Notes under the pieces: generated by a model
The model's database searches: none
Told to the model about the DNA's origin: nothing
Seen by the model: only the letters and a program-made list of their open reading frames with translations
NCBI GenBank assembly: GCA_039795225.1
Contig: JBDKEN010000001.1
Coordinates: forward strand, 85,610 to 149,609
DNA length: 64,000 nucleotides
Source of the DNA: Bacteroidota bacterium
GTDB lineage: Bacteria; Bacteroidota; Ignavibacteria; Kapaibacteriales; Kapaibacteriaceae
Direction of reading: 5' to 3'
Program-made: the position numbers and the translations under genes
In this document: positions 3,286-26,153 of the stretch, piece by piece
Layout: every line of letters begins with the position of its first letter
Position numbering within the stretch: the first letter of the stretch is position 1

Positions 3286-3341
3286 GTACTGGGTACTGGG
3301 TACTGGGTACTGGGTACTGGGTACTGGGTACTGGGTACTGG
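3286..3341. repeat. Perfect tandem heptamer array (GTACTGG)x8
   Basis: Read directly: unit starts at 3286, 3293, 3300, 3307, 3314, 3321, 3328 and 3335. The first unit begins at the nucleotide after the TAG stop of the 2728-3285 gene. A 7-nt period is incompatible with coding. Confidence 0.95.
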
Positions 3342-3434
3342 GTGTAAAGCAGCTCTCCACAGGTCGAAGTCGATTCGGGTATCCTCAATCGCACGCAGCC
3401 ATCTTTGGTGAGCCACCTCATGCACCAGTCCTTC

Positions 3435-3567
3435 GTACTTAGTACTTAGTAATCAGTAATCAGTACTTGGTAATTAGTCCTTGGTCATTGGTACTTGTTC
3501 CCCAGTACCTAGTACCCAGTACCCAGTACCCAGTACCTAGTACCCAGTACCCAGTACCCAGTACCTA
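3435..3567. repeat. 19 consecutive in-phase degenerate heptamers; the last 9 units (3505-3567) are the inverted complement of the 3286-3341 array
   Basis: Units read in register: GTACTTA x2, GTAATCA x2, GTACTTG, GTAATTA, GTCCTTG, GTCATTG, GTACTTG, TTCCCCA, then GTACCTA, GTACCCA x3, GTACCTA, GTACCCA x3, GTACCTA. The reverse complement of GTACCCA is TGGGTAC, which is the left array read in a rotated register. Confidence 0.9.
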
Positions 3568-3576
3568 AAACCTGCG

Positions 3577-3584
3577 TAACTTTG
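3577..3584 (+). promoter_or_regulatory. Candidate Bacteroidota-type -7 promoter box TAACTTTG upstream of typA
   Basis: Perfect match to TAnnTTTG, 30 nt before the typA ATG and 9 nt after the heptamer array. No clear -33 TTTG was seen. Confidence 0.35.
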
Positions 3585-3614
3585 TAGCTATCCCAAATTC
3601 GAGAAACCCGTCTC

Positions 3615-5453
3615 ATGGCTTTACAGCAGCGCACAGATTACCGAAACATTGCCATCATCGCACACGTTGACCACGGCAAGACAACGTTGGTTGACCACAT
3701 GTTGAAACAGGGCGGGATGTTTCGCGAGAATCAGGTAGTAGCAGACCGGGTGATGGATTCGAACGACCTCGAGAGGGAACGTGGTATCACGATCATGGCG
3801 AAAAATGCCGCCGTTCGTTGGAAGGATATCAAGATCAACATCGTCGACACACCGGGTCACTCCGACTTTGGTGGTGAAGTGGAGCGCGTTCTCTCGATGG
3901 TTGACGGCGTTCTTCTGTTGGTAGATGCTGCAGAGGGACCTCTTCCGCAGACGCGGTTTGTCCTTCGCAAAGCACTTGATATGGGGCTAAAGCCGATTGT
4001 CGTCATCAACAAGATTGACCGTGGCGATGCTCGGCCGCAGGAAGTTTTCGATGAAGTCATGGAGCTCTTCATCAACCTTGGCGCATCGTATGATCAACTC
4101 GATTTCCCGGTGATTTATGCCATTGGGAAGCTTGGCCTAGCGAAGCGGAGTTTGACCGACGAAGCGGATAATCTTGAAGCTCTCTTTGAGGCGATTGTTG
4201 AACACATACCTCCTCCAACGGTTGATGTGGACGTTCCGTTTGCGATGGTAATCTCCGCATTGGACTGGTCGGACTATGTTGGACGAATTGCCATTGGCCG
4301 AATCATCGAGGGGGCTGTCAGCGTTGGTGACAACGTGAATCTGATTAAACCGGATGGTACGCGTGAGTCGTCGCGGATCACCAAGATGTACGTGCATGAA
4401 GGCATCACCCGTGCGGAAACGACCACGGCTGCAGCCGGCGAGGTCATCGCGCTTTCGGGCTTTGAGAATGTATATATCGGCGAGACGATCGCCGACAGCA
4501 CACGTACCGAACCGTTGTCGTACGTCAACATCGAAGAACCAACGATTGCCATGTATTTCATGGTGAACACTTCGCCCCTTGCCGGACGCGAAGGAAAGTT
4601 TGTGACGACGCCGAAGATTCGCGAGCGTCTTTACAAGGAGCTTCGCAACAACGTGTCTCTTCGGGTTGAAGACACCGACTCACCTGACGTTTTCAAGGTT
4701 TCTGGACGGGGTGAGTTGCAGTTGGCAATTCTCATCGAGACAATGCGTCGTGAGGGATATGAATTTGCTGCCTCACGTCCGGAGGTACTCTTCCGGCGTG
4801 ATGCTGACGGCAAGATGTTGGAACCTATTGAGCATGTTACCGTGGATGTTCCACAAGACCACGTAGGAACGGTGATCGAAAGTCTTGGTCGACGCAAAGG
4901 TGAAATGACCGCGATGAACCCTGGCAACGACAGTGTTCGTTGTGAGTTTCTCGTACCTGCTCGCGGACTCATCGGATTCCGTACTGAGTTCCTCACGTCG
5001 ACGCGTGGTCAGGGGATCATTCACCACACATTTGATTCATACCAGCCCTACAAAGGCGCTATTGCTGGGCGTCTACGCGGTGCCTTGGTATCGATGGAGA
5101 CGGGACAATCAACGGCCTATGCACTGGAAATGGTGCAGGAGCGTGGGGTACTGTTTATCGAGCCAGGACAGCCAGTCTACGAAGGCATGATCATCGGCGA
5201 GAATGCCCGTGAAGAGGATCTCAGCGTTAACGCCTGTCGCATGAAGCACCTGACGAATATGCGTTCAAGTGGATCGGATGGTCTCGTGCGTCTCGAGGCT
5301 CCGCGTCAGTTATCACTTGAGCAATGCATTGAGTTTCTCGAAGACGACGAGTTGCTGGAATGTACTCCGGTATCGGTTCGTCTTCGAAAGAAGATCCTCG
5401 ATACCACCATGCGTCAGCGTGCCAAGAAGCGAGAGGCAGCCTCACTCGAATAG
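3615..5453 (+). CDS. typA: Translational GTPase TypA/BipA
   Basis: 612 aa with G motifs AHVDHGKTTL, DTPGH and NKID. Full-length TypA/BipA-like layout. Confidence 0.97.
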   Translation: MALQQRTDYRNIAIIAHVDHGKTTLVDHMLKQGGMFRENQVVADRVMDSNDLERERGITIMAKNAAVRWKDIKINIVDTPGHSDFGGEVERVLSMVDGVLLLVDAAEGPLPQTRFVLRKALDMGLKPIVVINKIDRGDARPQEVFDEVMELFINLGASYDQLDFPVIYAIGKLGLAKRSLTDEADNLEALFEAIVEHIPPPTVDVDVPFAMVISALDWSDYVGRIAIGRIIEGAVSVGDNVNLIKPDGTRESSRITKMYVHEGITRAETTTAAAGEVIALSGFENVYIGETIADSTRTEPLSYVNIEEPTIAMYFMVNTSPLAGREGKFVTTPKIRERLYKELRNNVSLRVEDTDSPDVFKVSGRGELQLAILIETMRREGYEFAASRPEVLFRRDADGKMLEPIEHVTVDVPQDHVGTVIESLGRRKGEMTAMNPGNDSVRCEFLVPARGLIGFRTEFLTSTRGQGIIHHTFDSYQPYKGAIAGRLRGALVSMETGQSTAYALEMVQERGVLFIEPGQPVYEGMIIGENAREEDLSVNACRMKHLTNMRSSGSDGLVRLEAPRQLSLEQCIEFLEDDELLECTPVSVRLRKKILDTTMRQRAKKREAASLE

Positions 5454-5457
5454 GTTC

Positions 5458-6339
5458 ATGCAGAGCATCATCCCCATCCTTGCGTTGATCGCGTGTGCAA
5501 GCCCCCTGCTTGCACTGCAACCAGCTATCCAGGATGACGATGTCCTCATGCGGCTTTCGCTCAAACCCAACGCTACGTATCGGTACGCGATCAATTCGAT
5601 CCTTGAGCAGGACGTTGAAGCCACAGGCGGACCTTCAACGAGTGCCATTACAACAGACCTTGATCTCACGCTCTCCGTGACCGACGTCACACTTGGTCGG
5701 AGTACGCTGAAGTTTGTATCGGAACAGGGTGGCGTGCGAACGCGAACGCTCACCGACGTTCGGGCCCCTTTGATGGATTCGACAGCGCGCCTGAACAACG
5801 GCAAGGGGCTTTCCATTGTTGTCACGTGCGACCCAACGGGACGTGTACTGGCAATTGAGCGTTCCTCCGACGAGGATCACCTTGCCTTACTCAACAGCAT
5901 GCGCGTTTTTGATCGCGTCGTACTGCAGTTCCCCAAGGAGCGCGTGCGCCCGGGCGATCGTTGGGTCTCAGAAATGATCGACACAATGCCCGCTCCGGAG
6001 GGACAGGGCAGCATTATCACCTCGATCGAAATGCAGGAGACATTTACTGCTGTCGTCGACTCATTAGGTATCCCATGTTGGCTCATCGAGGGCGAGTCAT
6101 CCTCGATGAAGATCCACGGTGGAATTGCTGTTTCCGGTATGAACATCGACGTCTGGGGTAACGGGAGGATGCGCACGCGCGCCATGGTCGATTCACGAAC
6201 TGGCCTGCCTATGCGCAGTGAGCTGCAACTGGAAAACTCGATGACGCTGCGCGCTGCCGGTACGAATGATGACCTGGCAGTCCCGAGCAACGCCCGGATG
6301 CGCGTCGTGATCTCTCAGCGCCCAAGGAAGCAAGAATGA
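5458..6339 (+). CDS. Hypothetical secreted protein
   Basis: The in-frame ATG at 5458 gives an MQSIIPILALIACASPLLALQ signal peptide, 4 nt after the typA stop. The longer track start at 5269 overlaps typA and is rejected. No family recognised. Confidence 0.6.
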   Translation: MQSIIPILALIACASPLLALQPAIQDDDVLMRLSLKPNATYRYAINSILEQDVEATGGPSTSAITTDLDLTLSVTDVTLGRSTLKFVSEQGGVRTRTLTDVRAPLMDSTARLNNGKGLSIVVTCDPTGRVLAIERSSDEDHLALLNSMRVFDRVVLQFPKERVRPGDRWVSEMIDTMPAPEGQGSIITSIEMQETFTAVVDSLGIPCWLIEGESSSMKIHGGIAVSGMNIDVWGNGRMRTRAMVDSRTGLPMRSELQLENSMTLRAAGTNDDLAVPSNARMRVVISQRPRKQE

Positions 6340-7289
6340 GACATTGCCTCATACTGACGATGCTAGGGATCGTGTGGGCCTCGACATCGATTCTTGCGCA
6401 GATGCAGATTCGACCGGGTGGTAAGCCCATTATCCTCGGGGCTGATACGATTTGTTTTCGCTATCGTTTTTCCCCTGCCGACACTCTGTACTACCGCATA
6501 GAATCTCGCGACAGCATTGCTATCCCGGGATTTGATCCGGTCGAAAAGCAGCGCACCGAGGGCCTTCGTATCGTCTGCGACTCTGTGCGGGACGACATCG
6601 CCTTCCTCTCCATGCAGATCGAGGCCTATTCCGAACGTCAGCTCAGCGGCAATGATTCTTCAGCCCGCACGAGACATCCATGGATGCTGCGTACGATGCG
6701 ACTCGCCATCGACAGTCTCGGTCGCCGGGTAACGTCATCCGTTGACGGAGATCAGCGGGCAATCGCTTCTCCAGGTGGAATGTTCCAGGCCCTGCGCCTT
6801 CCGATTATCGATTCGACGTGCCGACGTCAGAATCAAAGTTGGATATCGGCCGACACGATCATGGTTGCTGAAAACGGCATCCCTGCTCCTGAGGTTCGCC
6901 AGCAAGCTCTGTGGCGGATGGGTGACATGCTTGATACGCTTGGCCGGGCTGCGGCATGGATGCAGTATACGCTCACGGGATTTGCCGGTGTCGACATACC
7001 AGACGCCAAGCTGAATGTGACCACAGTTGGAGCAATCGCCGAATATGGTCGCATCGTTGTTGATACTGAGCTCGGTGTTCCCCTTTCGTCGGGCATCTGG
7101 CAGGAAGTGCGATTCAAGATCCAGTCGGGGCAGACTCGGAACACTGCAGGCAGGCATCTTGTTGTGTCAACGATGAGTTTGATCGATGTGCGTTCACCGC
7201 GGTCAGAACGGCGCTGGCGGAATCCACTGACGGTCACTCAACAGCCGACGCAGACGCGTGCGAAGGGGATGCCGCGTAAGCGACGGTGA
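6336..7289 (+). CDS. Hypothetical secreted protein with a basic C-terminal tail
   Basis: 317 aa with signal peptide MRHCLILTMLGIVWASTSILAQ. It overlaps the upstream gene by 4 nt. Size and composition resemble the preceding protein. The C-terminus is rich in R/K/Q/T. Confidence 0.6.
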   Translation: MRHCLILTMLGIVWASTSILAQMQIRPGGKPIILGADTICFRYRFSPADTLYYRIESRDSIAIPGFDPVEKQRTEGLRIVCDSVRDDIAFLSMQIEAYSERQLSGNDSSARTRHPWMLRTMRLAIDSLGRRVTSSVDGDQRAIASPGGMFQALRLPIIDSTCRRQNQSWISADTIMVAENGIPAPEVRQQALWRMGDMLDTLGRAAAWMQYTLTGFAGVDIPDAKLNVTTVGAIAEYGRIVVDTELGVPLSSGIWQEVRFKIQSGQTRNTAGRHLVVSTMSLIDVRSPRSERRWRNPLTVTQQPTQTRAKGMPRKRR

Positions 7290-7377
7290 TCTGCACAATG
7301 AAACCTCCGACGAAATCGCATTGTCATAGGTTCGTTGGTGTGCAATTCGTGATGTCATGTGAAAGGGGCGTTCTGGA

Positions 7378-8736: not shown

Positions 8737-8738
8737 CC

Positions 8739-10028: not shown

Positions 10029-10723
10029 GCAGCCAGTCGATCATCGAGATTTCGAATCTTGTAAAGCGCTACGAGATGGGCGACGAAGAGGTCTACGCTC
10101 TTCGTGATGTCTCACTCACGATCGGACACAACGAATATGTTGCGATCATGGGGCCGAGCGGTTCAGGCAAATCGACGCTCATGAACATGCTTGGATGTTT
10201 GGATACGCCAACATCAGGGACCTATCTCTTCAGTGGACACAATGTCCGCGAGATGGACGATGACGATCTGGCTGAGATTCGCAATCGCGAAATCGGCTTT
10301 GTGTTCCAGACCTTCAACCTGTTGCCGCGAGCTACGGCGCTGCAGAATGTTGAGCTTCCCCTCGTGTACAGCGGTGTCAGCAAGGAAGAACGTCAGCGTC
10401 GTGCGCAAGAGGCCCTTGAACGAGTTCAGCTTGCAGACCGGATGACGCACAAGCCCAATGAGCTCTCCGGCGGTCAACGTCAGCGTGTGGCAATCGCTCG
10501 TGCGATTGTGACAGCCCCCTCCATCATTCTTGCCGACGAGCCGACGGGGAATCTGGATACCAAGACTGGACATGACATCATGGCATTGTTCCGTGATCTC
10601 TGGCAGGCTGGCAACACCGTTATTCTCGTGACACACGAAGAAGACATCGCGCGGCATGCACGTCGCATCATCCGCCTGCGTGATGGCCGCATTGAAACTG
10701 ATACGGTGAACCCAGATGCGTAG
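10025..10723 (+). CDS. ABC transporter ATP-binding protein (MacB/LolD type)
   Basis: Walker [10 protein letters not shown], signature LSGGQRQR and Walker [12 protein letters not shown]. 4-nt overlap with the adaptor gene. Confidence 0.95.
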
Positions 10724-13222: not shown

Positions 13223-13246
13223 CGCCTGTCACTCGTAACTTGTCGC

Positions 13247-14626: not shown

Positions 14627-14635
14627 CCTAGCCTC

Positions 14636-16468: not shown

Positions 16469-16475
16469 GCAATGC

Positions 16476-16757
16476 TCACCCGACGTTGGCAGCAGTGTTC
16501 TGACGACGCATGAGTTGCTGGTGGGCAGCATCAAGAACTTCGACCAGGATCGATAGCTCGTTACCAAGACGTACACCAAGCCGCGAGCGTCCCATCGAAA
16601 TCTCGACAGGTCCATCAAATGGGGCTCGGCGTTCAATCGAACAGCAGACGCCCTCCACAAGGCCCAACTCGTTTGCACGACGCACACACGAATCGTCCCC
16701 AGTAACTGAGAGAATCCTGCATTGCGTCCCCACGGGACATGTGTGTAGCGGCTTCAT
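16476..16757 (-). CDS. feoA: Ferrous iron transport protein FeoA
   Basis: ATG at 16757 gives a 93-aa FeoA-like protein (MKPLHTCPVGTQCRILSVTGDD..ELGLVEG..). The first 24 codons of the track ORF (MKPETRNLKPETC..) begin inside the heptamer array, which supplies the repetitive start, and also span the candidate promoter box. Confidence 0.85.
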   Translation of the reverse strand: MKPLHTCPVGTQCRILSVTGDDSCVRRANELGLVEGVCCSIERRAPFDGPVEISMGRSRLGVRLGNELSILVEVLDAAHQQLMRRQNTAANVG

Positions 16758-16777
16758 ATGTTTATTTGGACTGAATC

Positions 16778-16785
16778 CAAAGATA
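16778..16785 (-). promoter_or_regulatory. Candidate -7 promoter box TATCTTTG upstream of feoA
   Basis: The + strand CAAAGATA is TATCTTTG on the - strand, a perfect TAnnTTTG. It lies 20 nt before the feoA ATG and 8 nt after the heptamer array. Confidence 0.4.
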
Positions 16786-16793
16786 CGGAAACA

Positions 16794-16828
16794 GGTTTCA
16801 GGTTTCAGGTTTCGGGTTTCAGGTTTCA
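16794..16828. repeat. Tandem heptamer array: 5 units, GGTTTCA x4 with one GGTTTCG variant at position 3
   Basis: Units at 16794, 16801, 16808 (GGTTTCG), 16815 and 16822. The last unit contains the TGA stop (TCA on the + strand, 16826-16828) of the OmpA-like gene. Confidence 0.9.
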
Positions 16829-18775
16829 TTTTATAGGTACGACGGCTGTGATCCTTACCACACGCTGCAGCATGCGTTCTTCGGGTAGACGCTGACTCTG
16901 CGAGGTGCCGGGCTCGCCGCGGCCGACGGCTGTTACACGACCCGGGAGCTGGGCGGCAACGGCGCGGGCTCGCTCAAGACTGATGCGATCGTTATCCTCG
17001 GTGGTGCCAATGATGTCCGTGTAGCCCTCCACCTGGATGCGGGCCCCTTTGCCTACGCGGCTCCGCACGAATTCCATCACGCGTCGGTGCTCATCGGTCA
17101 GCTCGGCACTGCGGAACGGAAACACAACAAGTTCAAATCGCTCAATGATGCTGTCGTTTTGACGCTCACGACGCTTGTCAATGAGACGTATGGTCTTGAT
17201 GGCAAGCTCAAGCGTGTCCGATACAGAAGCCCCCTTATGATCGCCGGACAGGGAGAGGCGAAGCTTGCCGCCCTGGATGAGCTCGCGCGCAGCCGCACCA
17301 TCGGGCGTGAAGACGATGTCGTTGGTCAGTGGCCGTGACGATGAGTCTACACGATCATCATTGACCCGCAGACTCCAGCGGTTGATCGGCGTGCCATCAC
17401 TCGAGCGCGCCTTTACCGTCACGCTCGGCGGCGTCATTGCGCCTACGGTGTCGGCTGTTCTGAAAGGAGCTAGCACATCGCTGTTGGATGACGTGATCTC
17501 CACGCGTCGGTTCTCCTCATCGGCAAGGGGCGCTTCAGTGCCGGTAGCGATCGATGCATTCACCGGAAGACGTCGCGCGCGGACCTTTACGCGCTTTGCG
17601 GCAATGCCGTATCCCTGTGTAAGTGCCGAAGCAACCGAGCGTGCCCTACGCAGTGCGATGGTTGTATCGGGGTCGTCGCTTGCACACGTGCCGACAAGCG
17701 TGACGTCTGAAGTTGGGAACTGTCGCATCCGCTCGGCAACAACCGACAGCAGACGATGGTGGAATTGCACCGGTGTGAGCCGCGCCGAGATTGCAGCCGA
17801 TGACGATGATGTCTCATATCGGTTCGGGATCACGTCCGAGCCCCGTTCAAAGAACACGTACGGCAGGATCGGCTGGTAGCGTTCTTCTTCGATCTCTTCG
17901 ATGCGTATCGCCTCGCGCACATCAGCCGACAGCTCGACGCCATACGTGTCCTGCTTGGGTTGCTGCACCGGAGTCTTGGGTGTCTCGGTCTTCGTGACTA
18001 CCGTCTGCGCGGGCTTCTGCGGCTCTGGTCTGCGCGCAGGGGGCTGAGCGGGCACGGTTCCGAACTCGTAGGACAGCCGCAGTCCGATCGACGGAACCGT
18101 GATGGTCCAGTCGGTGACGGACGTCAGATTCGCAAAGCCCCAGGCAAGCCCAACCTCGGGTGTAAGACGCCAGCTGCGTTGCCTATTCAGTGCGATGTCC
18201 AGGCCGACCGAGCTGACGCCGTAGAGCGTGCCGCTCAAGGACTCTGGCACGTTACCACTGCGGACGTTTCGCACGTTCGAGCGGGTATCGGCGAACAACG
18301 CGCCCGATGGTGCGGTAATCTCCTCGCGTGCACGCAAACGTCCGAAGGTGCGCGCTGCATAGCCCCCTCCCAAGCGTACAACGAGATTGCTCCACCGATA
18401 GCCGAGCGACGTCTCAATGCCATACTCGCTCAGCGGTGTTTCGATGCTGTGCGTTATCGCTCCCTGGACGATCGCATTGCCAACGATGATGTCCTGAACC
18501 TCGGTGGTCGAAAGCGTGTGTGAGCGGTCACTGAAGGCAAGGCGCACACTGCCGAAGAGTGAGCTCCAAACGGGAACATCAACGCCCACGCTGAGCTGTC
18601 CGCCCGTGCCCGAGCCCCCATCGAAGGATGGACAGCACGACGGGAACCCGGGCAGTTGCCGGAACGATGCACTAGCCGTGGTGAAGCCAACGGACGTTCC
18701 GGCATCGAGGCGGATCTGTGCAATGACAGATGTGAACTGAAGAACGACAATGCCGATGACAACGAATGCTCTCAT
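16826..18775 (-). CDS. Outer-membrane protein: N-terminal beta-strand-rich domain plus two OmpA_C-like peptidoglycan-binding domains
   Basis: ATG at 18775 (MRAFVVIGIVVLQFTSVIAQ signal peptide) overlaps the upstream stop (ATGA). A ~250-aa beta-rich region and a P/K/Q-rich linker precede two OmpA_C-like segments (..EENRRVEITS.. and ..VEGYTDIIGTTEDNDRISLERARAV..). Confidence 0.85.
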   Translation of the reverse strand: MRAFVVIGIVVLQFTSVIAQIRLDAGTSVGFTTASASFRQLPGFPSCCPSFDGGSGTGGQLSVGVDVPVWSSLFGSVRLAFSDRSHTLSTTEVQDIIVGNAIVQGAITHSIETPLSEYGIETSLGYRWSNLVVRLGGGYAARTFGRLRAREEITAPSGALFADTRSNVRNVRSGNVPESLSGTLYGVSSVGLDIALNRQRSWRLTPEVGLAWGFANLTSVTDWTITVPSIGLRLSYEFGTVPAQPPARRPEPQKPAQTVVTKTETPKTPVQQPKQDTYGVELSADVREAIRIEEIEEERYQPILPYVFFERGSDVIPNRYETSSSSAAISARLTPVQFHHRLLSVVAERMRQFPTSDVTLVGTCASDDPDTTIALRRARSVASALTQGYGIAAKRVKVRARRLPVNASIATGTEAPLADEENRRVEITSSNSDVLAPFRTADTVGAMTPPSVTVKARSSDGTPINRWSLRVNDDRVDSSSRPLTNDIVFTPDGAAARELIQGGKLRLSLSGDHKGASVSDTLELAIKTIRLIDKRRERQNDSIIERFELVVFPFRSAELTDEHRRVMEFVRSRVGKGARIQVEGYTDIIGTTEDNDRISLERARAVAAQLPGRVTAVGRGEPGTSQSQRLPEERMLQRVVRITAVVPIK

Positions 18776-21393
18776 CGTACCACCTCGAAAAGCGTGGTGG
18801 CAACTGTCGATGGCGATTGAACCATAAACACGTACGTGCCTGCGGTCAGCCAGGACGGAATCTGCCATTCCACAGCGTCACCATCTGATGAGCCGACGCC
18901 AAGCTGAATCTCCTCACCAAGCATCGTAACGATCCGAGCCGTTGACGTCCGGGCATCCTCACCGACGGCGCTACCGATAGCCCCCTCGGGTCCGACGGGA
19001 TTCGAGGCAACCGCAACAGCAAGCCGCGCACGTCGGAATGTGACAAAGCGTCCGACCGAGTCGATGCGGCAGATGCCCGCCGCTTTGAATGGCAGCTGCA
19101 CTGGCGTAGCACCGGCAACACATGGGTCAAAGTCGAGACTGTCAACGATGATCGATGTGCTGTCGCGGTCACCGAGCGCAACGCGCAGATCGAAGAATCC
19201 GAGCGTATCGCTTGATGGCTTGCGACGTCCGGTGACCTTGATCGAGCGCAGCGAATCATCGGTTGTTCCGCGGCCAAGGGGCCGTACGGGAAACAGCATG
19301 GTCTTGTTGAAGCGGACAACGGCGGACCAGTCGGTGGGAAGCGACTCCAGTTTCGTTCCGTTCGGAGCAGCAACGCGCATGACAACGCGAACAGTCGATC
19401 CAACCGTTGCACTGTCAGCTCCGGCATAGGACATCAGCAGCGGCGTGCTGCCGCTCGACGATGACGTTATGACCGTAACTGTGTCCGTGGTTACCGAGCA
19501 GCCGTCTGGTGAGAAGACCACAGCATAATACCGACCTGGCGTGCGAACCCTTATCGAGCGAACCTTAACGATGGTATCTGCGCTCAACACGCCAGTAGAC
19601 CAAAAAACACGTTCAATGTTCTGCCCAGAGAGTGTCAGCAGAACGCCCGACGTATCACAAATCGACACTGTGTCTATCGGTGTGAGCTTGACTGACGGCA
19701 GAAGGCCGGGCTTGATAACAATGCTATCGGCGTACTCACAACCACCGGCGTTGTACCTGACATTGTATGTGCCGGCCGTCGTGATCACTCTCGTTGATGA
19801 AACGTTGCCATCTCCCCATACCACATTGGCTGGCGAAGGCTGCAGCGTCAACGTTACACTATCCCCTGTTGCACAGAGCACAGTGTCGGATGCAAGAATC
19901 TTGGTCGTGCTAGCACCGCATCCGATCTTCACAAGGAAACCGTCGCGCTCGCCCCCTGACGATCTCTGAAACACTGGCCCTGGTGCATTGGTACCGGGCA
20001 TGACGGTGCTAGTTGTCGTGCCGCATATGTAGCTCGAGTTGGGGCCTTCGTCGATACCACCGAAGCCAAAGCGGAATTGCTCTGTGTCGAGCGTGAGTTC
20101 ATCAGCGTTACCGCAAAACTCGCTCAGTCCAACTGGATTGGTACCTGGATAAGGATTCAACCGAAACGCACTGAATCGACCAATCTTGCAGAAATAAAAA
20201 CCGTTGGAAAAGAGCAGAGGTCCATTATTCGTATTGCCTCGTGTGAACGAGCACAGGATATCGTCACCTGGTGTGTTTACGTACCACGTAACCGCCGTAA
20301 CGGTGGGCTCTGTTGTTATCAGCAGCATAAATGCATCACCACCCAAAGCACTGCCACCGGCGTAAGGCATACCTCCTGTTGGACTACCAGGAGCTGGGAA
20401 CGGACCACCGTTGTAGAGGCCACAAACACGCAGGGTGAACTTCTCACCACCAGCTCCAGGTTGATTGGAGCGGAACGGCTGCAAGCCATACACAACCTCA
20501 TTGCCTGCTCCGCCGCAATACGTAGACCACTGACACTCCAGCGTAGTGGAGTCTAGTCGTGCTACAAATCCATCATCATCGAAGACGGTGCCAAGTCGCG
20601 CTGGCTGAAGCACGGGGTTGCCCGGTAGCTTATCACTTCGGGTGCGCCCACCCACGTATACGTGGCCGAGCGTGTTGCGTACACGCACCACCAGCACTTC
20701 ATCAAGGTAGCGTCCGCCGAAATATGTAACCACATCTGGCACAATTTGCCAGCCGCTTGGTGACTGAACGAGACTCAACTTGGCAACAAACCCATCTCCA
20801 ATGCCTTGCCCAGCAAGGCCACCACCCTGATAACTAGCCTGCATAGCATTCGCCGTTGTCGGGAAGTCGCGCGACTCTGTGACGCCCCCTACGTAGATCG
20901 TGTTTCCTACAATGTCAACACTTGTTGCAACATCTGCCTCTGATCCTCCGAGAAACTGGTCGCGAGCGAACCGTTCTCCGAGCGTTGTAAACGTCGATAC
21001 TGTTGCATCCACATTGCCGCATTGATTGGCTATTGAGCCCACCATGACGAGCACTCCCGCATCTGAAATCGCAAGCTCTAGTGGTCGGACGCAACTGAAA
21101 TACTGCAGCCAACGCATCTCCCCTGTTGGACTAAACGAAGCGAGATAGCCACCGGGTCCAACTGTGTCAAATGAAGTTGGCACATTACGGGGCTTGGGGA
21201 AATCCGTGCTCGTGAACACTCCGCACACATAGACATTGTCATCACGATCGACGCAGAGATCGCGCATTTCGTCCTTCCCAGAGCCGCCAAGGAAGGTTGC
21301 CCATTGCACTTCTAGCTGCTTTTGGGCAGACACAGTCACTGATGCTAGCCTGAACATCAGAAACATCAACACCACATAATGACCGAGATTCAT
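18772..21393 (-). CDS. Large secreted SBBP-type beta-propeller repeat protein with a T9SS-like C-terminal sorting domain
   Basis: 873 aa with signal peptide MNLGHYVVLMFLMFRLASVTVSAQ. SBBP-like repeats include FLGGSGKDEMRDLCVDRDDNVYVCGVFTSTDFP and FLGGSEADVATSVDIVGNTIYVGGVTESRDFP. The C-terminal ..LTAGTYVFMVQSPSTVATTLFEVVR resembles a T9SS type A CTD. Confidence 0.8.
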   Translation of the reverse strand: MNLGHYVVLMFLMFRLASVTVSAQKQLEVQWATFLGGSGKDEMRDLCVDRDDNVYVCGVFTSTDFPKPRNVPTSFDTVGPGGYLASFSPTGEMRWLQYFSCVRPLELAISDAGVLVMVGSIANQCGNVDATVSTFTTLGERFARDQFLGGSEADVATSVDIVGNTIYVGGVTESRDFPTTANAMQASYQGGGLAGQGIGDGFVAKLSLVQSPSGWQIVPDVVTYFGGRYLDEVLVVRVRNTLGHVYVGGRTRSDKLPGNPVLQPARLGTVFDDDGFVARLDSTTLECQWSTYCGGAGNEVVYGLQPFRSNQPGAGGEKFTLRVCGLYNGGPFPAPGSPTGGMPYAGGSALGGDAFMLLITTEPTVTAVTWYVNTPGDDILCSFTRGNTNNGPLLFSNGFYFCKIGRFSAFRLNPYPGTNPVGLSEFCGNADELTLDTEQFRFGFGGIDEGPNSSYICGTTTSTVMPGTNAPGPVFQRSSGGERDGFLVKIGCGASTTKILASDTVLCATGDSVTLTLQPSPANVVWGDGNVSSTRVITTAGTYNVRYNAGGCEYADSIVIKPGLLPSVKLTPIDTVSICDTSGVLLTLSGQNIERVFWSTGVLSADTIVKVRSIRVRTPGRYYAVVFSPDGCSVTTDTVTVITSSSSGSTPLLMSYAGADSATVGSTVRVVMRVAAPNGTKLESLPTDWSAVVRFNKTMLFPVRPLGRGTTDDSLRSIKVTGRRKPSSDTLGFFDLRVALGDRDSTSIIVDSLDFDPCVAGATPVQLPFKAAGICRIDSVGRFVTFRRARLAVAVASNPVGPEGAIGSAVGEDARTSTARIVTMLGEEIQLGVGSSDGDAVEWQIPSWLTAGTYVFMVQSPSTVATTLFEVVR

Positions 21394-23537
21394 CGTATTC
21401 CTTCATCAAGCATGAGCTTTGTGCGGACGTTGGTTCCGAAACGCGCGACGATCACATATGGCTGATGGTGGTTCTGTGGCAAATAGTCGGCACCGACACC
21501 CACACATCGTCCATCCAGGAGGTACCATACCACTTCATCGGCACTCTGCAATTGTTCTCGGGTGAGGCCCTCGACTTCGTCTACCGACGAAATCGGCAGA
21601 GGCCATGGTTCCTTCAGTCGTAGTACCCTTCCATCTGCTGTGCCCACAATCATCGACTCTGTATCGGAATGCACCGATACAAAAACAACGGGTGCCCCTC
21701 CTGTTTCAAGGGTCTTCACACGCAAGCCCGATGCAGCTTCGACGATCACGACCGTACCGTCGTCCTGTCCTACCGAAAAGTGCTTGGCAGACTTTGAACA
21801 GGCAATGCGATTCCCAAGGAATCCATCGATGAAGGGCTTACCGATTGCCGGAAGAACGTTGACTTCTTGTAACGTCTCGGCATCTATGATCACGGCGTCG
21901 ATAGCATCTGCACTTGATAGTCCATACTGCATGAGCACCAATACATCAGACTCTCCAACACGCGAAGCGGGCACAAGGATATCGATCACGGATGTAGGAA
22001 CAGACTTGGTCGCTAGAATCTGTCCGGTTAGCCCGTCCAGGACTCGTAGCGTACTGTCGGCGCAGCTTGTAACAATGCGCCCATTGCGTGTGGAGGTTGC
22101 CACCCAAGGGATACAGGTAGCAATAGCGGACGAGGTAAGGGGCTCGGGGTTGCCAGATGTAAGAGCGAATGCACTATCACTTGTTAGGACGATTATTCGG
22201 TCAGTCGTCCTGCTCGCAACAACTGAGGTAGCTCTTCGAGAGAACGAGGTATCCATGGATTTCGATTGAACGTCATACCGGCGCAAACGTCGTATACCAT
22301 CATTGGCAACGGGTGTGAAGTACAACGACTGCATGGCGTTATCAAACACCATGGAAGCCGGCGTAGCAAAGCCCCAAGGCTGGTTCCCAACCGTATGAGT
22401 AACAGAACCATTTGCAACATCGATAAGACGAATCCGATCCGAGCTTGACGACGCGGTAGCTATCATTTTTCCATCGATAGACCAAGCCGCACGGCGTAGG
22501 TACCCAGTCATGCCCTCGAGGTCGAACATGAACCTATCCGTCGTGAGATCCCATACCTGGACATCGCTACCCTGTGTGGCCACGTAGAGACGTTTTGCAG
22601 GCTGGTCGACGGCGAGGGCCGAAACCTGGCGTCCAAACTCGATGATCGTATCAGCATCGGAGCGCCCGTCCGTGTACCGACGCAGTCCGGCAAAGAGCAC
22701 GCCCGCCGTAATCGTTCGAGTTGCGTCTTCAAGAACAACGAACTCAGGTCCACCAGCGATGCCATAGTCTACATCACGTCTACTCTGAACGGCGCCTGTG
22801 GCTGCATCCACGGTAAGGATTGCATTCGATGCAGCCATCCGGATGGTAGTGGATGTGGCATAGGCCGCAGCATAAATAGGAGAACTTCCTCCAGAGCCGG
22901 GTGCAGCACCGTCAACCACCGCACGTATGGCTAGTCCAGGAACCCCTACAATTCGGGCAGGGTTCGGCACTGATGGCGAGTCCTTTCCACCTGCCCGCGA
23001 CGTTGTGATTGTCATGGAAGCACCGTCTGGGTTCACGGCAATGGAGCGGACAGGCGACCCAAGGCGCATCGTGTCGAGAATTGCTCGATTGTTCAGATCC
23101 CACCTTCGCACCACACCCGCATCGTCACCTACGGCAACCCAATCTCCATTTGGAGAGCAAGCAATATCATTTACTTGAAGGGTGTGCTTTCCCAGAGTAA
23201 AGAGTAGTCGCCCTGATTCGATCGACCAACACCTTACCCAACCGTCGGCATCACCCGTGATCACGATCGCTTCATCCGGCGTTATAGCCATGGAGCGTCC
23301 ACCCAGGAATCGCGTCGTGATCAATGTGAGCGTACTACTCTTTGTGGCTAGGTCCCAAACACGCACAGAACCATCAAAGGAGCCAACCAGCAGACGTCCG
23401 TTTGATAGCGGCACTAAGTCGTAAGCAGGACGAGTGTTTCCGCCACGTTCCCAAAGCACATCAGGTATCTGCGATTGTGCCGTAAGCAAACAAGAGACAC
23501 AGCAGAACGCAGCCAGCAATTGAACGGTGCTAAACAT
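21390..23537 (-). CDS. Secreted WD40-repeat beta-propeller protein
   Basis: ATG at 23537 gives an MFSTVQLLAAFCCVSCLLTAQSQ signal peptide. WD40-like repeats include DGSVRVWDL, DGWVRCWSI and AGVVRRWDL. The stop overlaps the next gene's start (ATGA at 21390-21393). Confidence 0.8.
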   Translation of the reverse strand: MFSTVQLLAAFCCVSCLLTAQSQIPDVLWERGGNTRPAYDLVPLSNGRLLVGSFDGSVRVWDLATKSSTLTLITTRFLGGRSMAITPDEAIVITGDADGWVRCWSIESGRLLFTLGKHTLQVNDIACSPNGDWVAVGDDAGVVRRWDLNNRAILDTMRLGSPVRSIAVNPDGASMTITTSRAGGKDSPSVPNPARIVGVPGLAIRAVVDGAAPGSGGSSPIYAAAYATSTTIRMAASNAILTVDAATGAVQSRRDVDYGIAGGPEFVVLEDATRTITAGVLFAGLRRYTDGRSDADTIIEFGRQVSALAVDQPAKRLYVATQGSDVQVWDLTTDRFMFDLEGMTGYLRRAAWSIDGKMIATASSSSDRIRLIDVANGSVTHTVGNQPWGFATPASMVFDNAMQSLYFTPVANDGIRRLRRYDVQSKSMDTSFSRRATSVVASRTTDRIIVLTSDSAFALTSGNPEPLTSSAIATCIPWVATSTRNGRIVTSCADSTLRVLDGLTGQILATKSVPTSVIDILVPASRVGESDVLVLMQYGLSSADAIDAVIIDAETLQEVNVLPAIGKPFIDGFLGNRIACSKSAKHFSVGQDDGTVVIVEAASGLRVKTLETGGAPVVFVSVHSDTESMIVGTADGRVLRLKEPWPLPISSVDEVEGLTREQLQSADEVVWYLLDGRCVGVGADYLPQNHHQPYVIVARFGTNVRTKLMLDEGIR

Positions 23538-23663
23538 GACAAAATACCCCTGTGTATTGACGATTAGATGTTCACACCCGTGTCCAACTGCAATGTCACA
23601 TCCGTGGCTGGATGGCCAGTGAAATGTGACGTTTGTCTGCATTCAGGGGTGTATACTTGCTAC

Positions 23664-24221
23664 GTGCTTACCCCACCAGCGCATATTGTCCCAACAGAAT
23701 TGCTTTGTGCAGTAAACAACCCTGCAACGAGAGATGCCTCTTTCGCAGAATTCTACGATGCGCTCAGCAGACACGTGTATATGTACGCACTGCGCATGAC
23801 ATCAAACGAGTTAGATGCTTCTGACGTAACGCAGGAGACGTTCATCCGCGTACATGCACACCTCGTAAGGGGCAACACCATCGTTGATCCACTCCCCTTC
23901 TGCCTGATGATCGCACGTCAGCGCGTGATCAACATGCACCGCGACCGCAAGGTCACGGTGGAGCTCGATGAACAGCATAGCACTGTCGACCCCTATATCG
24001 ACATTGAGCGCGAGGACATCCGCGAACACGTCGAGCATGCCGTTGCGCGTCTGCCGGTGCTTCTGCGCGATGCGTTTGTCTTGAGATACTACGATGGTCT
24101 TTCGTATGAAACGATTGCAACGATGATCTCAGAATCAGCCGGCACCGTGCGTATGCGCGTGCATCGCGCCAAGGCCATCCTTCGTCAGTCGCTGGCGCAT
24201 CTCGTCAGGGAGAAAAGCTGA
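23664..24221 (+). CDS. ECF-type RNA polymerase sigma-70 family factor
   Basis: Region 2 (DASDVTQETFIRVHAHL) and a region 4 HTH (LSYETIATMISESAGTVRMRVHRAKAIL) are present. The start is uncertain. The track ATG at 23568 adds a Cys-rich ~30-aa extension, whereas GTG 23664 or TTG 23700 fit the family length better. Confidence 0.85.
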   Translation: MLTPPAHIVPTELLCAVNNPATRDASFAEFYDALSRHVYMYALRMTSNELDASDVTQETFIRVHAHLVRGNTIVDPLPFCLMIARQRVINMHRDRKVTVELDEQHSTVDPYIDIEREDIREHVEHAVARLPVLLRDAFVLRYYDGLSYETIATMISESAGTVRMRVHRAKAILRQSLAHLVREKS

Positions 24222-25264
24222 TGCGCGCCAGTGCTCACATCCTTATCCAGCGATATCTCGACGGAGAGCTCTCCGAGCTCGAGCTCCAGGCCTTTCTCCA
24301 GGACCTTTCGCAGAGCCCAGAGCTTGCATCAATGCTGGAGCAAGAAGTCAACATCGAAGCAGCGATCATCAACGATGCGTATTCCATAGAGCCCCCTGCC
24401 GAGCTACGTGCTGCCGTGTTGCAGTCGCTTCCTGACGTAGGTTCTTCCTGGACACTCAGCGTGGTCGGTCAGATGGCGTTGAGTATTGCCATGGGCGGAG
24501 TGTTCCTGCTTACATCGCTTGTCAGTATTGGTACAAACAGCATGCGACGGGTAGATGCTCCCGCGTCGAAGGTTGCACCCGTAATTGCCACTTCGGCCTC
24601 GTCCCGTGCGGTCGAACATTCGAGGTCCGCACCAGGCAGAGTTCTCAGCATCGATGCATCAATTCCTCGATCATTCTCATCACGTGACGTTGTTGCCGAC
24701 GTCGAGAGTGCTGATGTCTTGGTTGAGCCGACACGACACGTGCACATGCCGTTTGAGACTCTGCAACGTTCATGGGGTGAGCAGCACTCTGATCGATTCC
24801 TCGGCCTGGGTGGTGCATCCGTCTCGTCGCTTCCGACAGGTCTGTTCGGTGGGATGGTGGGAACCAGCATGGTCTCGCTGCGATACGAGCTCGACCTTCT
24901 CGAAGATTCACAGGTCTTCGTCGAGGCAGGGGGCTTGCAGCAGCCGCGCACGTCAACAGCATACGTCAACGGTGCAACGGCTTCCGTCATCTCCAGTGGC
25001 ATATCGCCATTTGTGAGCATTGGCATTGCCGGAAGTGTCCTCGATCTAGACATGCTCGGCCGGCCCATCAGCGGCGCAGCGTCGATCGGCGTCACGAGCG
25101 CCGGCCCCATTGCTATAGCGGATGTATCGGCTCCGATCATTGACCTCGGCCACACCACGCTTGACGTGGGCGTGCGCTTCTCCGCGCGGTTCGATCTTGG
25201 TTCACGTAGCACCAGCTCCGTCAGCGCAGCCCCTTTCATCCGTGTGGGCATTCCTCTGAGGTGA
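24221..25264 (+). CDS. Putative membrane anti-sigma factor
   Basis: The start overlaps the sigma gene stop (TGATG). The N-terminal LIQRYLDGELSELELQAFLQDL looks like an anti-sigma helix. One TM helix (VVGQMALSIAMGGVFLLTSLVSI) precedes a ~240-aa beta-rich extracytoplasmic domain of unknown family. Confidence 0.65.
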   Translation: MRASAHILIQRYLDGELSELELQAFLQDLSQSPELASMLEQEVNIEAAIINDAYSIEPPAELRAAVLQSLPDVGSSWTLSVVGQMALSIAMGGVFLLTSLVSIGTNSMRRVDAPASKVAPVIATSASSRAVEHSRSAPGRVLSIDASIPRSFSSRDVVADVESADVLVEPTRHVHMPFETLQRSWGEQHSDRFLGLGGASVSSLPTGLFGGMVGTSMVSLRYELDLLEDSQVFVEAGGLQQPRTSTAYVNGATASVISSGISPFVSIGIAGSVLDLDMLGRPISGAASIGVTSAGPIAIADVSAPIIDLGHTTLDVGVRFSARFDLGSRSTSSVSAAPFIRVGIPLR

Positions 25265-25336
25265 GAGAGCGCTTCACGCAGGTTTGAGGTGTGGGGTTTG
25301 GGGTGTGGGGTCATTTGTCATTCGTCATTGGTCACT
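25265..25336. repeat. Composite array element, copy 1: leader GAGCGCTTCACGCA plus 8 in-phase heptamers
   Basis: The leader is at 25267-25280, 2 nt after the TGA stop of the anti-sigma gene. The units from 25281 are GGTTTGA, GGTGTGG, GGTTTGG, GGTGTGG, GGTCATT, TGTCATT, CGTCATT, GGTCACT. Confidence 0.85.
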
Positions 25337-25364
25337 TTTCATGATATACATTTCTTTCGTTGTA

Positions 25365-25372
25365 TATCTTTG
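25365..25372 (+). promoter_or_regulatory. Candidate -7 promoter box TATCTTTG upstream of vapB
   Basis: Perfect TAnnTTTG, 24 nt before the vapB ATG and 28 nt after the array. Confidence 0.4.
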
Positions 25373-25396
25373 TGCTGAAATTTCAGGACCGACACT

Positions 25397-25627
25397 ATGC
25401 GCGTATCAAAATGGGGTAATAGTCTGGCCGTGCGACTTCCGGCCAGCATTGTCGAGGAGTTGAACCTTAAGGAGGGCGACGAGATCGAACTCGTAAGCTC
25501 CGATATGGAATCATTTATCCTTCATCGGTACGACAATCCCGCGCAGCTTCTCGAGCGCATCCGACGCTTCAGGGGGCGACTCCCCAAGGGATACAACTTC
25601 GATCGGGAGGGGGCTCATGAGCGCTAA
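25397..25627 (+). CDS. vapB: AbrB/MazE/SpoVT-family antitoxin (VapB-type)
   Basis: 76 aa. MRVSKWGNSLAVRLPASIVEEL is the classical swapped-hairpin AbrB-type antitoxin N-terminus. Overlaps the PIN gene by 11 nt. Confidence 0.85.
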   Translation: MRVSKWGNSLAVRLPASIVEELNLKEGDEIELVSSDMESFILHRYDNPAQLLERIRRFRGRLPKGYNFDREGAHER

Positions 25628-26021
25628 GACGTTCATCGACACGAACGTCCTGCTCTACCTCCTCTCGCATGATGCGCGCAAAGCGTCGTCCGTTGAGCGT
25701 CTGCTCCTGCAGCAGCCCACCATCAGCGTACAGGTGTTGAATGAGATCGTTGCGGTTGCCACGAGGAAGCTCCGCATGCCGATGCCCGAGATACTCGAGT
25801 TCTGTCAGGTCATCCGCCGTCTCTGCAACGTCGAGCCAATCACGCCGGACCATCATGATCTTGCTCTATCGATCATGCAACGATTCAACTACAGCATATA
25901 CGATGCTCTCATCATTGCCTCTGCCCTTCTCGCAGACTGTCGAAGGCTCTCTACGGAAGACCTCCAGCATGGCCAGGTCATTTTGAAGCAGCTGAGAGTA
26001 GAAAATCCTTTTCGAGTGTGA
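25617..26021 (+). CDS. vapC: PIN-domain toxin VapC
   Basis: 134 aa with the acidic PIN residues in FIDTNV, LNE and YDALI. Small size and antitoxin pairing fit VapC. Confidence 0.9.
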   Translation: MSAKTFIDTNVLLYLLSHDARKASSVERLLLQQPTISVQVLNEIVAVATRKLRMPMPEILEFCQVIRRLCNVEPITPDHHDLALSIMQRFNYSIYDALIIASALLADCRRLSTEDLQHGQVILKQLRVENPFRV

Positions 26022-26117
26022 GCGCTTGGCGCAGGTGTGAGGTTTGGGGTGTGAGGTAATTGGTAATTGGTAATTGGTAATTCGTCATTAGTAATTGGTC
26101 ATTGGTAATTGGTATTT
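26020..26117. repeat. Composite array element, copy 2: leader GAGCGCTTGGCGCA plus 12 in-phase heptamers
   Basis: The leader at 26020-26033 overlaps the vapC TGA stop (26019-26021). The units from 26034 are GGTGTGA, GGTTTGG, GGTGTGA, GGTAATT x4, CGTCATT, AGTAATT, GGTCATT, GGTAATT, GGTATTT. Orientation and internal order match copy 1. Confidence 0.85.
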
Positions 26118-26153
26118 GGCCCCTTACCTCCGTTCCTCCGTAATTTCTTTCCC

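Follow-up and report, generated by a model that had tools for sequence, protein, structure and literature searches.

Tandem repeats with a unit of seven nucleotides (nt) fill four intergenic sites in the 64,000-nt stretch of contig JBDKEN010000001.1 analysed here (assembly GCA_039795225.1, Bacteroidota bacterium, Kapaibacteriaceae), which we call the window. In our best reading of the sequences, these heptamer arrays would not be conserved regulatory sites; they are lineage-specific and length-polymorphic, appear to be young, and are concentrated at the junctions of recently acquired DNA. It is probable that they are slippage-generated, largely non-adaptive heptanucleotide microsatellites, which persist between stop codons and the promoters that follow them. 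Strand slippage, together with unequal or ectopic recombination between arrays, would create the arrays and resize them by 7 nt or by blocks of 14, 28 or 42 nt. In a tightly packed genome, the arrays would survive only in unconstrained DNA, from the stop codon to the upstream edge of the next promoter, and they would look stop-proximal and co-directional because this gap is the only DNA of that sort. The heptamer-repeat kind and its stop-proximal placement between co-directional genes have already been published; the host lineage, the stem at site 1, the paralogy of sites 3 and 4, the block borders, a 42-nt length difference and a link to PF05635 genes are the new details.

The period-7 arrays were called with Tandem Repeats Finder (TRF), and the register was checked by printing each site in rows of seven. 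The portion of the genome that was read, the 64-kb window plus about 6 kb, contains four array sites, for which TRF gave period-7 arrays at 3285-3343, 3427-3567, 16792-16828, 25281-25342 and 26033-26119 with scores of 38-134. The arrays and the promoter boxes beside them are as follows, in window coordinates.

3286-3343, plus strand: array 1a, (GGTACTG)x8.4, 100% identical (eight perfect GTACTGG units at 3286-3341); 5' arm of the predicted hairpin of site 1
3344-3427, plus strand: unique, non-repetitive part of the site-1 loop, with no open reading frame (ORF), no Rfam match and no similarity to PF05635
3428-3497, plus strand: array 1b, about 10 heterogeneous in-phase units (GTACTTA, GTAATCA, GTACTTG, GTAATTA, GTCCTTG, GTCATTG)
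3498-3573, plus strand: array 1c, (GTACCCA/GTACCTA)x9, with a 28-nt higher-order period; 3' arm of the predicted hairpin
3577-3584, plus strand: TAACTTTG, Bacteroidota-type -7 box of typA/bipA (start 3615), a perfect TAnnTTTG
16778-16785, minus strand: TATCTTTG, -7 box of feoA-feoB (feoA ATG at 16757), conserved in the related loci L085 and L087
16794-16828, minus strand: array 2, (GAAACCT)x5 on the gene strand, equal to (GGTTTCA)x5 on the plus strand
25281-25336, plus strand: array 3, units GGTTTGA, GGTGTGG, GGTTTGG, GGTGTGG, then GGTCATT, TGTCATT, CGTCATT, GGTCACT
25365-25372, plus strand: TATCTTTG, -7 box upstream of mazE (start 25397), a perfect TAnnTTTG
26034-26119, plus strand: array 4, units GGTGTGA, GGTTTGG, GGTGTGA, then nine units of the GGTAATT type

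At each of the four sites, the row-of-seven print-out showed one 7-nt register without a single indel. GT at unit positions 2-3 is invariant in nearly all units, and the units within one array differ at up to 4 of the 7 positions. The run at 3435-3567 consists of 19 units in one register, all GT-initial, in which units of the 1b type drift into nine GTACCCA/GTACCTA units, and pure arrays are built of GGTACTG/CCCAGTA, GGTAATT and GGTTTCA. With a single scoring scheme, seven period-7 runs were found in the window, as compared with none at periods 4, 5 and 8-12 and two at period 6, and 7 is the sole enriched non-coding period of the window. The period-7 autocorrelation was 0.45-0.62 in the four array gaps versus about 0.25 in all other intergenic gaps. 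The GGT-containing strand is the plus strand of the window in five of the six arrays, regardless of gene orientation (the genes at site 2 are on the minus strand), a bias that may reflect the direction of replication. A CRISPR array was ruled out, because the units are contiguous and 7 nt long whereas CRISPR has 23-50-nt repeats with unique spacers. A gathering-threshold scan of the whole window against Rfam returned no family, and ARAGORN found no tRNA or tmRNA in it.

Co-directional genes flank the arrays at all four sites. The distance from the upstream stop codon is 0, 0 (overlap), 16 and 12 nt for sites 1-4, and that to the next start is 47, 36, 60 and 36 nt, with feoA taken from its real ATG at 16757. 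Array 1a begins immediately 3' of the stop TAG (3283-3285) of a hypothetical gene of 178/185 amino acids (aa), and the first unit of array 2 on the gene strand holds the TGA stop (16826-16828) of a 649-aa OmpA-family gene. Array 3 begins 16 nt past the stop (25262-25264) of the gene for a 347-aa protein, which follows an extracytoplasmic function (ECF) sigma factor gene. Array 4 begins 12 nt past the stop of a PIN toxin gene (26019-26021) and ends 34 nt before the start of a Y-family polymerase gene at 26154. There are nine TAnnTTTG boxes in the whole window, below the shuffled-sequence count, and three of them lie between an array and the next start; no perfect box was found between array 4 and the start that follows it. 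The first-pass annotation of this DNA had described four intergenic sites of strictly in-phase heptamers, all between co-directional genes, non-coding and not CRISPR, together with the stop distances (0, overlap, 16 and 12 nt), the start distances (36-60 nt) and a TAnnTTTG box at three of the four sites. This description was correct throughout, for the sites to the base.

The same annotation had listed assembly artefacts among the outcomes that would count against its reading. The window matches the JGI metagenome contig Ga0451703_0000019 (206 kb), and the gene coordinates recur unchanged in a second JGI/NCBI sample. In the Logan assembly of SRR30127143, site 3 is identical, and arrays 2 and 4 interrupt the contig, which is expected of short-read assemblers. 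An artefact was therefore rejected, since three independent assemblies carry the arrays. Over 36 kb, a single indel of 42 nt (6 units), within array 4, distinguishes the window from Ga0451703_0000019. The GGTAATT part of this array is 65 nt long in the window and 107 nt long in the metagenome contig; the extra DNA is one six-unit higher-order block. Array 4 is the only unstable spot in 36 kb, under polymorphism or assembler collapse alike. The lengths of sites 2 and 3, taken from gene coordinates, are the same in three samples. Variant units are spread in blocks (the 28-nt period with 100% identity in array 1c and the 42-nt block in array 4), which speaks for slippage.

Relatives and other loci that were fetched are cited here by locus number. 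By TypA, the host is nearest (89% identity) to an Ignavibacteria metagenome-assembled genome (MAG) and an uncultured Melioribacter, and its closest named polymerase homologues are from Candidatus Kapabacteria MAGs. Kapaibacteriaceae belong to the Bacteroidota within the Fibrobacteres-Chlorobi-Bacteroidetes group, and the host of this group proposed by the first-pass annotation was supported. Locus L002, like L003 with a TypA of 89% identity, has the same hypothetical gene before typA, with a 66-nt spacer that contains no array and keeps the promoter box (TATCTTTGTAGCT, compared with TAACTTTGTAGCT in the window). In L003 the box is also kept, and no array is present in the available 50 nt upstream of it. 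The typA box is conserved as TATCTTTG in both array-less relatives, and no period-7 run was found in either locus. Since the array-less spacers keep the box, site 1 represents an insertion or expansion of about 265 nt exactly between stop and promoter. The suggestion that the arrays are a lineage-specific filler of the stop-to-promoter gap is thereby borne out; absence from close relatives, which together with unchanged transcript ends, starts or expression would have counted against a role for the arrays, was found at the orthologous typA site of the nearest genomes, with the promoter box retained. Where polymerase identity is 72-76%, the relatives carry heptamers with other units, ATTCGCT/GTTCGCT, placed downstream of feoB and in the gap that follows the polymerase gene. 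In L084 (96% polymerase identity), a GGGTTAT-type array in the opposite orientation fills the 34-nt gap from a different antitoxin gene to the polymerase start. Length change by whole units or blocks, absence at orthologous sites, other units in sister lineages and an orientation independent of transcription together support slippage-generated microsatellites.

Three of the four array sites adjoin borders of lineage-specific insertions. In the relative L087, a spacer of about 150 nt separates the divergent feoA and polymerase genes, and in the window 9.3 kb lies between the two. The left border of this block is marked by array 2 and the right one by array 4; array 3 marks an internal border before a toxin-antitoxin (TA) module. 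The elements of this region are as follows.

16826-26153, no strand assigned: lineage-specific block with OmpA-like, SBBP-repeat, WD40, ECF sigma, 347-aa protein and MazE-PIN genes
25265-25280, plus strand: head of site 3, GAGAGCGCTTCACGCA, non-repeat, common to site 4
25397-26021, plus strand: TA cassette between arrays 3 and 4, consisting of a MazE/AbrB-type antitoxin (25397-25627) and a PIN toxin (25617-26021)
26022-26033, plus strand: head of site 4, GCGCTTGGCGCA, non-repeat, paralogue of the site-3 head

Sites 3 and 4 are paralogous and have in common, from the stop codon on, TGA-GAGCGCTTnnCGC-AGGTkTGAGGTkTGGGGTGTGrGGT. Arrays 3 and 4 are thus direct repeats of about 60 nt flanking the MazE-PIN module, and the similarity extends about 18 nt into the preceding coding ends. 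The folds predicted for the RNA of sites 2, 3 and 4 and of the L084 array were not significant (z = -2.1 to +0.3; 0.29 for site 3 and -1.9 for site 4). Within 26034-26153, the G-rich site-4 head GAGGTTTGGGG is complementary to the C-rich tail CCCCTTACCTC after the array; given this complementarity, the GGTAATT array could loop out in RNA, with a fold only marginally better than those of shuffled sequences (z = -1.9). An integron attC site was ruled out for sites 3 and 4, which have no significant fold, no GTTRRRY core by inspection and no integrase nearby. The gap upstream of the Y-family (DinB-like) polymerase is a TA hot spot in this lineage: it holds MazE-PIN in the window (25397-26153), HigB-HTH_3 in L084 (744-1365), with an array at the junction, and a RelE-like gene with dnstrm_HI1420 in L085 (9352-9987) and L086 (8772-9877), and nothing in L087. 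Array 2 caused gene-calling errors: the 117-aa FeoA of one pipeline starts inside the array at 16829 (ORF 16476-16829, minus strand), and another pipeline called a 39-aa fragment at feoA, the real ATG of which is at 16757.

Heptamers are not peculiar to this window. In 1.34 Mb of unrelated loci fetched via TypA, 33 runs of period 7 were found, compared with 1, 10, 2 and 1 at periods 5, 8, 10 and 11. Period 7 is the commonest period in these loci that is not a multiple of 3, in agreement with the account of Mrazek, Guo and Shah (2007) given in PMC4679880. By that account and the one in PMC4692102, heptanucleotides are the commonest long simple-sequence repeats with 5-11-nt units in prokaryotes, their distribution among lineages is sporadic, and polymerase slippage was proposed as the generator. 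The window arrays have run lengths beyond chance and a whole-unit length change (in array 4, where assembler collapse is possible), and they do not differ in kind from this class; they add a further lineage to it. A metagenome scan for (GGTAMTK)x4 yielded at least 120 contigs, mostly of cyanobacterial type and, among the matches listed, to which the following counts refer, none from the window organism. HIP1 (GCGATCGC) was 44-fold enriched (349 versus 7.9 expected, in at least 63 contigs), and CCCCAGT, CAACAGT and TAACTGA arrays co-occurred with GGTAATT, GGTACTG and CCCAGTA arrays in the HIP1-rich contigs. From this enrichment and co-occurrence, the unit family is common to cyanobacterial repeats of the short tandemly repeated repetitive (STRR) type; at least about 15 contigs of higher G+C without HIP1 carry it as well. 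With a crude ORF caller, the gaps were co-directional in 107 cases, convergent in 32 and divergent in 13, with 60 arrays nearer the stop and 47 nearer the start (median 46 nt to the stop versus 63 nt to the start), so that the stop-proximity emphasised by the first-pass annotation holds in the window and is weak in these contigs. At least nine IMG/VR viral contigs (L090-L098) have (GGTAMTK)x4 arrays, and the repeats are thus also on phage or prophage DNA.

The STRR units of heterocystous cyanobacteria, described by Mazel and co-workers in 1990, are said to be CCCCAGT, TTGGTCA and CAACAGT. TTGGTCA occurs literally three times in the window, each time as a single unit within a mixed array, CCCCAGT occurs once, and the unit of the long array, CCCAGTA, is one base off STRR1; the literal TTGGTCA and CCCAGTA noticed by the first-pass annotation are indeed there. 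Like STRR sequences, of which three tandem heptanucleotides were reported for Calothrix PCC 7601 (PMC4692102), the arrays are intergenic tandem heptanucleotides with drifting units. Unlike them, they belong to a Kapaibacteria-like Bacteroidota host, and the long arrays use GGTACTG, GGTAATT, GGTTTCA and GGTKTGR. The arrays were not assigned to cyanobacterial STRR proper, as TTGGTCA and CCCCAGT are never in tandem, the relatives of the host are Ignavibacteria, Melioribacter and Kapabacteria, and TAnnTTTG boxes are present; the designation STRR-like, given at first pass, remains apt in kind, in view of the co-occurrence in HIP1-rich contigs. The non-cyanobacterial context that it stressed is not new, since heptamers with the same placement have been published for five Bacteroidetes, Beggiatoaceae and Xanthomonas (PMC4679880, PMC4692102).

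Rehm et al. (2015) described (GGGAATC)n/(GGGANTN)n arrays in Xanthomonas and GGGGA(C/T)T arrays in Nostoc, of which 89-93% are intergenic; the Xanthomonas arrays follow the upstream ORF at a mean distance of 28 nt and precede the next at a mean of 160 nt, mostly in co-directional gaps, and their units are heterogeneous, their length varies between close relatives and some form inverted pairs (PMC4692102). The window arrays are likewise intergenic, nearer to the upstream ORF end, co-directional and heterogeneous, with one inverted pair, but three of the four sites are at insertion borders, in contrast to the conserved locations in Xanthomonas, and only one array has G3 runs. TAACTGA and mixed heptamer arrays were described in Beggiatoaceae, cyanobacteria and five Bacteroidetes, with long arrays lacking in the closest relative despite an unchanged gene neighbourhood, and with strains that differ by indels in steps of 7 nt (MacGregor 2015, PMC4679880). 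The window resembles this case in having heptamers of mixed units in a member of the Bacteroidetes, absent from the closest relatives and with indels in multiples of 7 nt. In Beggiatoaceae the arrays abut starts, whereas at three of the window sites a promoter box lies in between; the array in L084 shows the start-abutting form. The window arrays were not counted as TAACTGA repeats, since no such array is present and the nearest unit, TCAGTAA, is one mismatch from the reverse complement. The repetitive extragenic palindromic (REP) sequences and bacterial interspersed mosaic elements of enterobacteria are lineage-specific filler on the 3' side of genes, in co-directional or convergent gaps, with hairpins and a debated function. 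A REP sequence is one imperfect palindrome, about 35 nt long, that the RAYT transposase mobilises, whereas the window has arrays of tandem heptamers, and no RAYT was seen.

Three further observations in the fetched loci concern the repeats or the relatives. In Acidobacteriota MAGs, arrays lie directly beside typA (L024:9665-9928, L023:9840-9864, L042:9885-9918, L028:11786-11816 and L072:11799-11836); the unit CAGGTTT of L026 is the unit of site 2 in the window, and many units across phyla have a CAG/CTG or ACTG core. The 2.5-kb metagenome contig L173 (G+C 0.60) has at 1771-2185 the plant-type telomere heptamer (ACCCTAA)n/(GGGTTTA)n as an inverted pair 203 nt apart, and is possibly of eukaryotic origin or a fold-back artefact. 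L085:5859-6369 (JADIZM010000012.1) is about 500 nt of near-pure poly-C/poly-G tracts, probably an artefact of assembly or polishing.

Several points weigh against slippage as a sufficient explanation. The 42-nt difference in array 4 could be assembler collapse of the higher-order repeat and not a polymorphism of the population. The strict phase over about 390 nt, kept despite many substitutions, could mean selection on periodicity, and the near-invariant GT and the five-of-six GGT strand bias hint at a constraint that slippage alone does not predict. Related neighbouring heptamer arrays in all loci form 36 inverted and 7 direct pairs, an excess that pure slippage does not explain, although abutting in-phase direct pairs merge and are undercounted at short distance. 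The link to insertion borders rests on three or four sites in 64 kb. The unbroken phase, the invariant GT and the inverted-pair excess are the reasons why rival explanations are kept alive.

The inverted pairs lead to site 1. The first-pass annotation had missed this inverted pair, the paralogy of sites 3 and 4 around the TA module and the position of three of the four sites at insertion borders. Array 1c is the reverse complement of array 1a; the arms (3280-3343 and 3507-3570, 64 nt) are 95% complementary, and the predicted RNA fold has a 62-bp stem, a 157-nt loop and an energy of -169 kcal/mol (z = -14). Array 1b is the remainder of the loop, with units that resemble the GGTAATT/GGTCATT of site 4. 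The right arm shows a perfect 28-nt period at 3501-3567, with CCTAGTA and not CCCAGTA as each fourth unit, and the left arm is homogeneous, from which it follows that the arms expanded or were homogenised separately. The loop had no BLAST match outside its own contig and none in any fetched locus. A decayed gene in the loop, or a copy of another sequence, was rejected on these grounds and because the loop gave no PF05635 profile match in six frames with all filters off; no PF05635 gene was found anywhere in the window. A scan of site 1 for sigma-70 promoters and intrinsic terminators gave nothing. ORFs called through the site (2935-3360, minus strand; 3218-3442, plus strand) are spurious and encode YWVLGTG/QYPVPST peptide repeats. 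On RNA, the stem might act as a double-stranded target of RNase III, or as a block at the 3' end that keeps the upstream transcript apart from typA.

PF05635 is the "23S rRNA intervening-sequence protein" family, also the four-helix-bundle protein TIGR02436. Intervening sequences (IVSs) of 23S rRNA with an S23p/PF05635 ORF were reportedly described by Ralph and McClelland in 1993, and ORF-less IVSs occur in other bacteria. The 23S rRNA IVS of Coxiella has a 28-bp terminal stem with the S23p ORF in the loop and is excised by RNase III (PMC4990558), and PF05635 genes also sit inside cas operons (PMC3936711). Like an IVS, site 1, alone among the four sites, has a long terminal inverted-repeat stem around a loop; unlike an IVS, it has no ORF in the loop, lies outside rRNA genes in the gap between the hypothetical gene and typA, and has a stem of tandem heptamers. 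It was not counted as a full cassette of the IVS type, for want of a PF05635 ORF and of a location in helix 25 or 45 of 23S rRNA. Judged by architecture, the best reading of site 1 is that of an ORF-less hairpin element of the intervening-sequence type.

Such an arrangement with the gene in place was found in L182 (G+C 0.54), where (GGGTACT)n and (ACCCAGT)n arms surround a decayed PF05635 gene at 2745-3465, with the same unit and polarity as at site 1; the block lies within a resistance-nodulation-division (RND) operon, with the membrane-fusion gene on one side and the permease gene on the other, and its fold has z = -11.8. PF05635 genes were then sampled independently by a profile search followed by context look-ups. 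Outside rRNA operons, all 8 independent contexts, drawn from five or more phylum-level groups, had inverted tandem arrays of 7- or 8-nt units enclosing the gene or next to it, which pair into a long stem that has the ORF in its loop; these contexts include the following.

L219, 4955-5421: PF05635 with ATTGYTnC octamers, upstream of ruvC
L232, 4959-5400: PF05635 with AGTRCCTG octamers, Cloacimonetes genome
L240, 2961-3469: PF05635 with GACTGAG heptamers, Desulfosarcina alkanivorans
L050 (19310-19805), L226 and L243 (3367-3458): PF05635 with GAGTACT heptamers, Acidobacteria locus beside a peptidase S9 gene
L195, 5460-5914: PF05635 with AGTRCTA heptamers
L189, 4230-4665: PF05635 with CATTGTTn octamers
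L102, 5940-6450: PF05635 with CCCAGTA/CCAAGTA heptamers and a 12-bp inverted repeat

In loci that had not been selected for arrays, an array was located within 150 nt of six of the six PF05635 genes and of 11 of the 58 other genes (Fisher p = 1.7e-4), where three of the six genes come from one ancestral context and many of the 11 are neighbours of PF05635 genes. L189 and L219 have the CATTGTTn octamer around different proteins, so the arrays seem to travel with the PF05635 gene. PADLOC gave no defence-system assignment for the PF05635 proteins, and no description of tandem-repeat stems around PF05635 genes was found in the searchable literature library. Not every inverted pair is a cassette, as long-loop pairs often merely flank ordinary genes. 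Inverted pairs with a loop of just 5-51 nt, of which there are 22, are long heptamer hairpins (for example in L141, L170, L035 and L026), and one short-loop hairpin, L085:11201-11322, lies between convergent genes. It is tentatively conceivable that tandem arrays of 7-8-nt units are the arms, and possibly recombination handles, of widespread, undescribed hairpin cassettes outside rRNA, the complete form of which carries a PF05635/TIGR02436 (Avd-like) gene; site 1 would then be an ORF-less copy, and sites 2-4 solo or duplicated arms that captured the TA module and the 9.3-kb block.

Another explanation, which we consider unlikely, is that arrays with common units serve as portable homology at cassette junctions, through which DNA is gained, duplicated or lost. 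A circle with an array and cargo would recombine into a resident array to give array-cargo-array, inverted pairs would take cargo into the loop, and sites 2-4 would be the scars or substrates of acquisitions. This would account for the direct repeats with a common non-repeat head on both sides of MazE-PIN, for the same orientation of arrays 2 and 4 around a 9.3-kb block absent from L087, for the different TA modules at the polymerase-upstream spot of L084, L085 and L086 with an array at the L084 junction, and for the PF05635 genes between inverted arrays in all eight contexts. However, another synteny break, with two extra genes at 27375-27931, has no array, site 1 has no cargo in its loop and unchanged flanking genes, and no recombinase gene is nearby. 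New junctions are also the least constrained DNA, in which arrays may grow secondarily, and the Xanthomonas arrays are at more, not less, conserved locations (Rehm et al. 2015, PMC4692102).

The strict register, with GT nearly invariant despite drift elsewhere, would also suit a periodic binding platform, in which a single-strand binder (for instance a protein with a cold-shock domain, or an oligomer of the HutP/TRAP sort), each monomer reading about 7 nt, coats RNA or unwound DNA and modulates termination, read-through or translation. Cold shock proteins bind one protein per heptamer and have been proposed as binders of the TAACTGA repeats, the L084 array fills its 34-nt gap up to the polymerase start as in Beggiatoaceae, and a Nostoc preprint gives expression effects for a heptamer-repeat deletion. 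A single mismatch separates each of the units GTCATTG, GTCCTTG and GTCATTT from GTCTTTG/T, the optimum of Bacillus CspB (PMC1904285), a resemblance that we take as a lead only. The first-pass annotation had suggested a platform of this sort, but a sequence-specific RNA-binding site is unlikely as a general rule, since the G-rich strand is sense at arrays 1a, 3 and 4 and antisense at site 2, at array 1c (the right arm of site 1) and in L084. Moreover, units differ at up to four of seven positions within one array, and the orthologous sites of the nearest genomes keep the promoter box without arrays. We therefore regard a platform as distinctly unlikely.

Contingency (phase-variation) tracts, in which slippage alters the copy number and switches or tunes the promoters of typA, feoAB, mazE-PIN and the Y-family polymerase, are very unlikely here. 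The six-unit difference in array 4 between otherwise identical assemblies, the position of array 2 over the -33 region of the feoA promoter (it ends 8 nt from the -7 box) and the stress-related nature of downstream genes (iron uptake, TA module, translesion polymerase) are compatible with such a switch. No array, however, lies in an ORF or between -33 and -7, so that copy number affects neither frame nor promoter spacing; sites 2 and 3 are equal in length in three samples. Known contingency loci, moreover, have units of 1-5 nt and belong to host-adapted pathogens (PMC4692102), unlike this organism, which lives freely in the environment. Of the slippage-prone contingency tract proposed at first pass, the slippage-prone part was supported by the 42-nt difference and the switch was not. 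Least probable of all are G-quadruplex regulatory repeats, as proposed for the Xanthomonas GGGAATC and Nostoc GGGGAYT heptamers: (GGGTACT)x8 at 3291-3342 in array 1a is a canonical G3N4 motif, the only one in the window (shuffled sequence averages 2.6), three GGGG runs occur at site 3, L084 carries an array of the GGGTTAT type, and the placement is the one described by Rehm et al. (2015, PMC4692102), but arrays 2, 3 and 4 and arm 1c do not reach four runs of G3 or more (GGTAATT, GGTCATT and GGTTTCA arrays have GG runs only), the complementary arm of site 1 is interrupted each fourth unit, and a hairpin or duplex with that arm competes at site 1.

The window arrays, in the reading that we favour largely non-adaptive heptanucleotide microsatellites, extend this repeat kind to a Bacteroidota lineage related to Kapaibacteria and Ignavibacteria. 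The relatives offer a natural experiment, in which identical flanking genes and a promoter box are found with and without arrays. In practice, the arrays break short-read assemblies and mislead gene callers. If the association of array pairs with PF05635 genes holds genome-wide, the question of STRR function would become a testable hypothesis of a selfish element or of RNA processing, and the cassette reading, if true, would give the 35-year-old STRR puzzle a concrete explanation as a selfish element.

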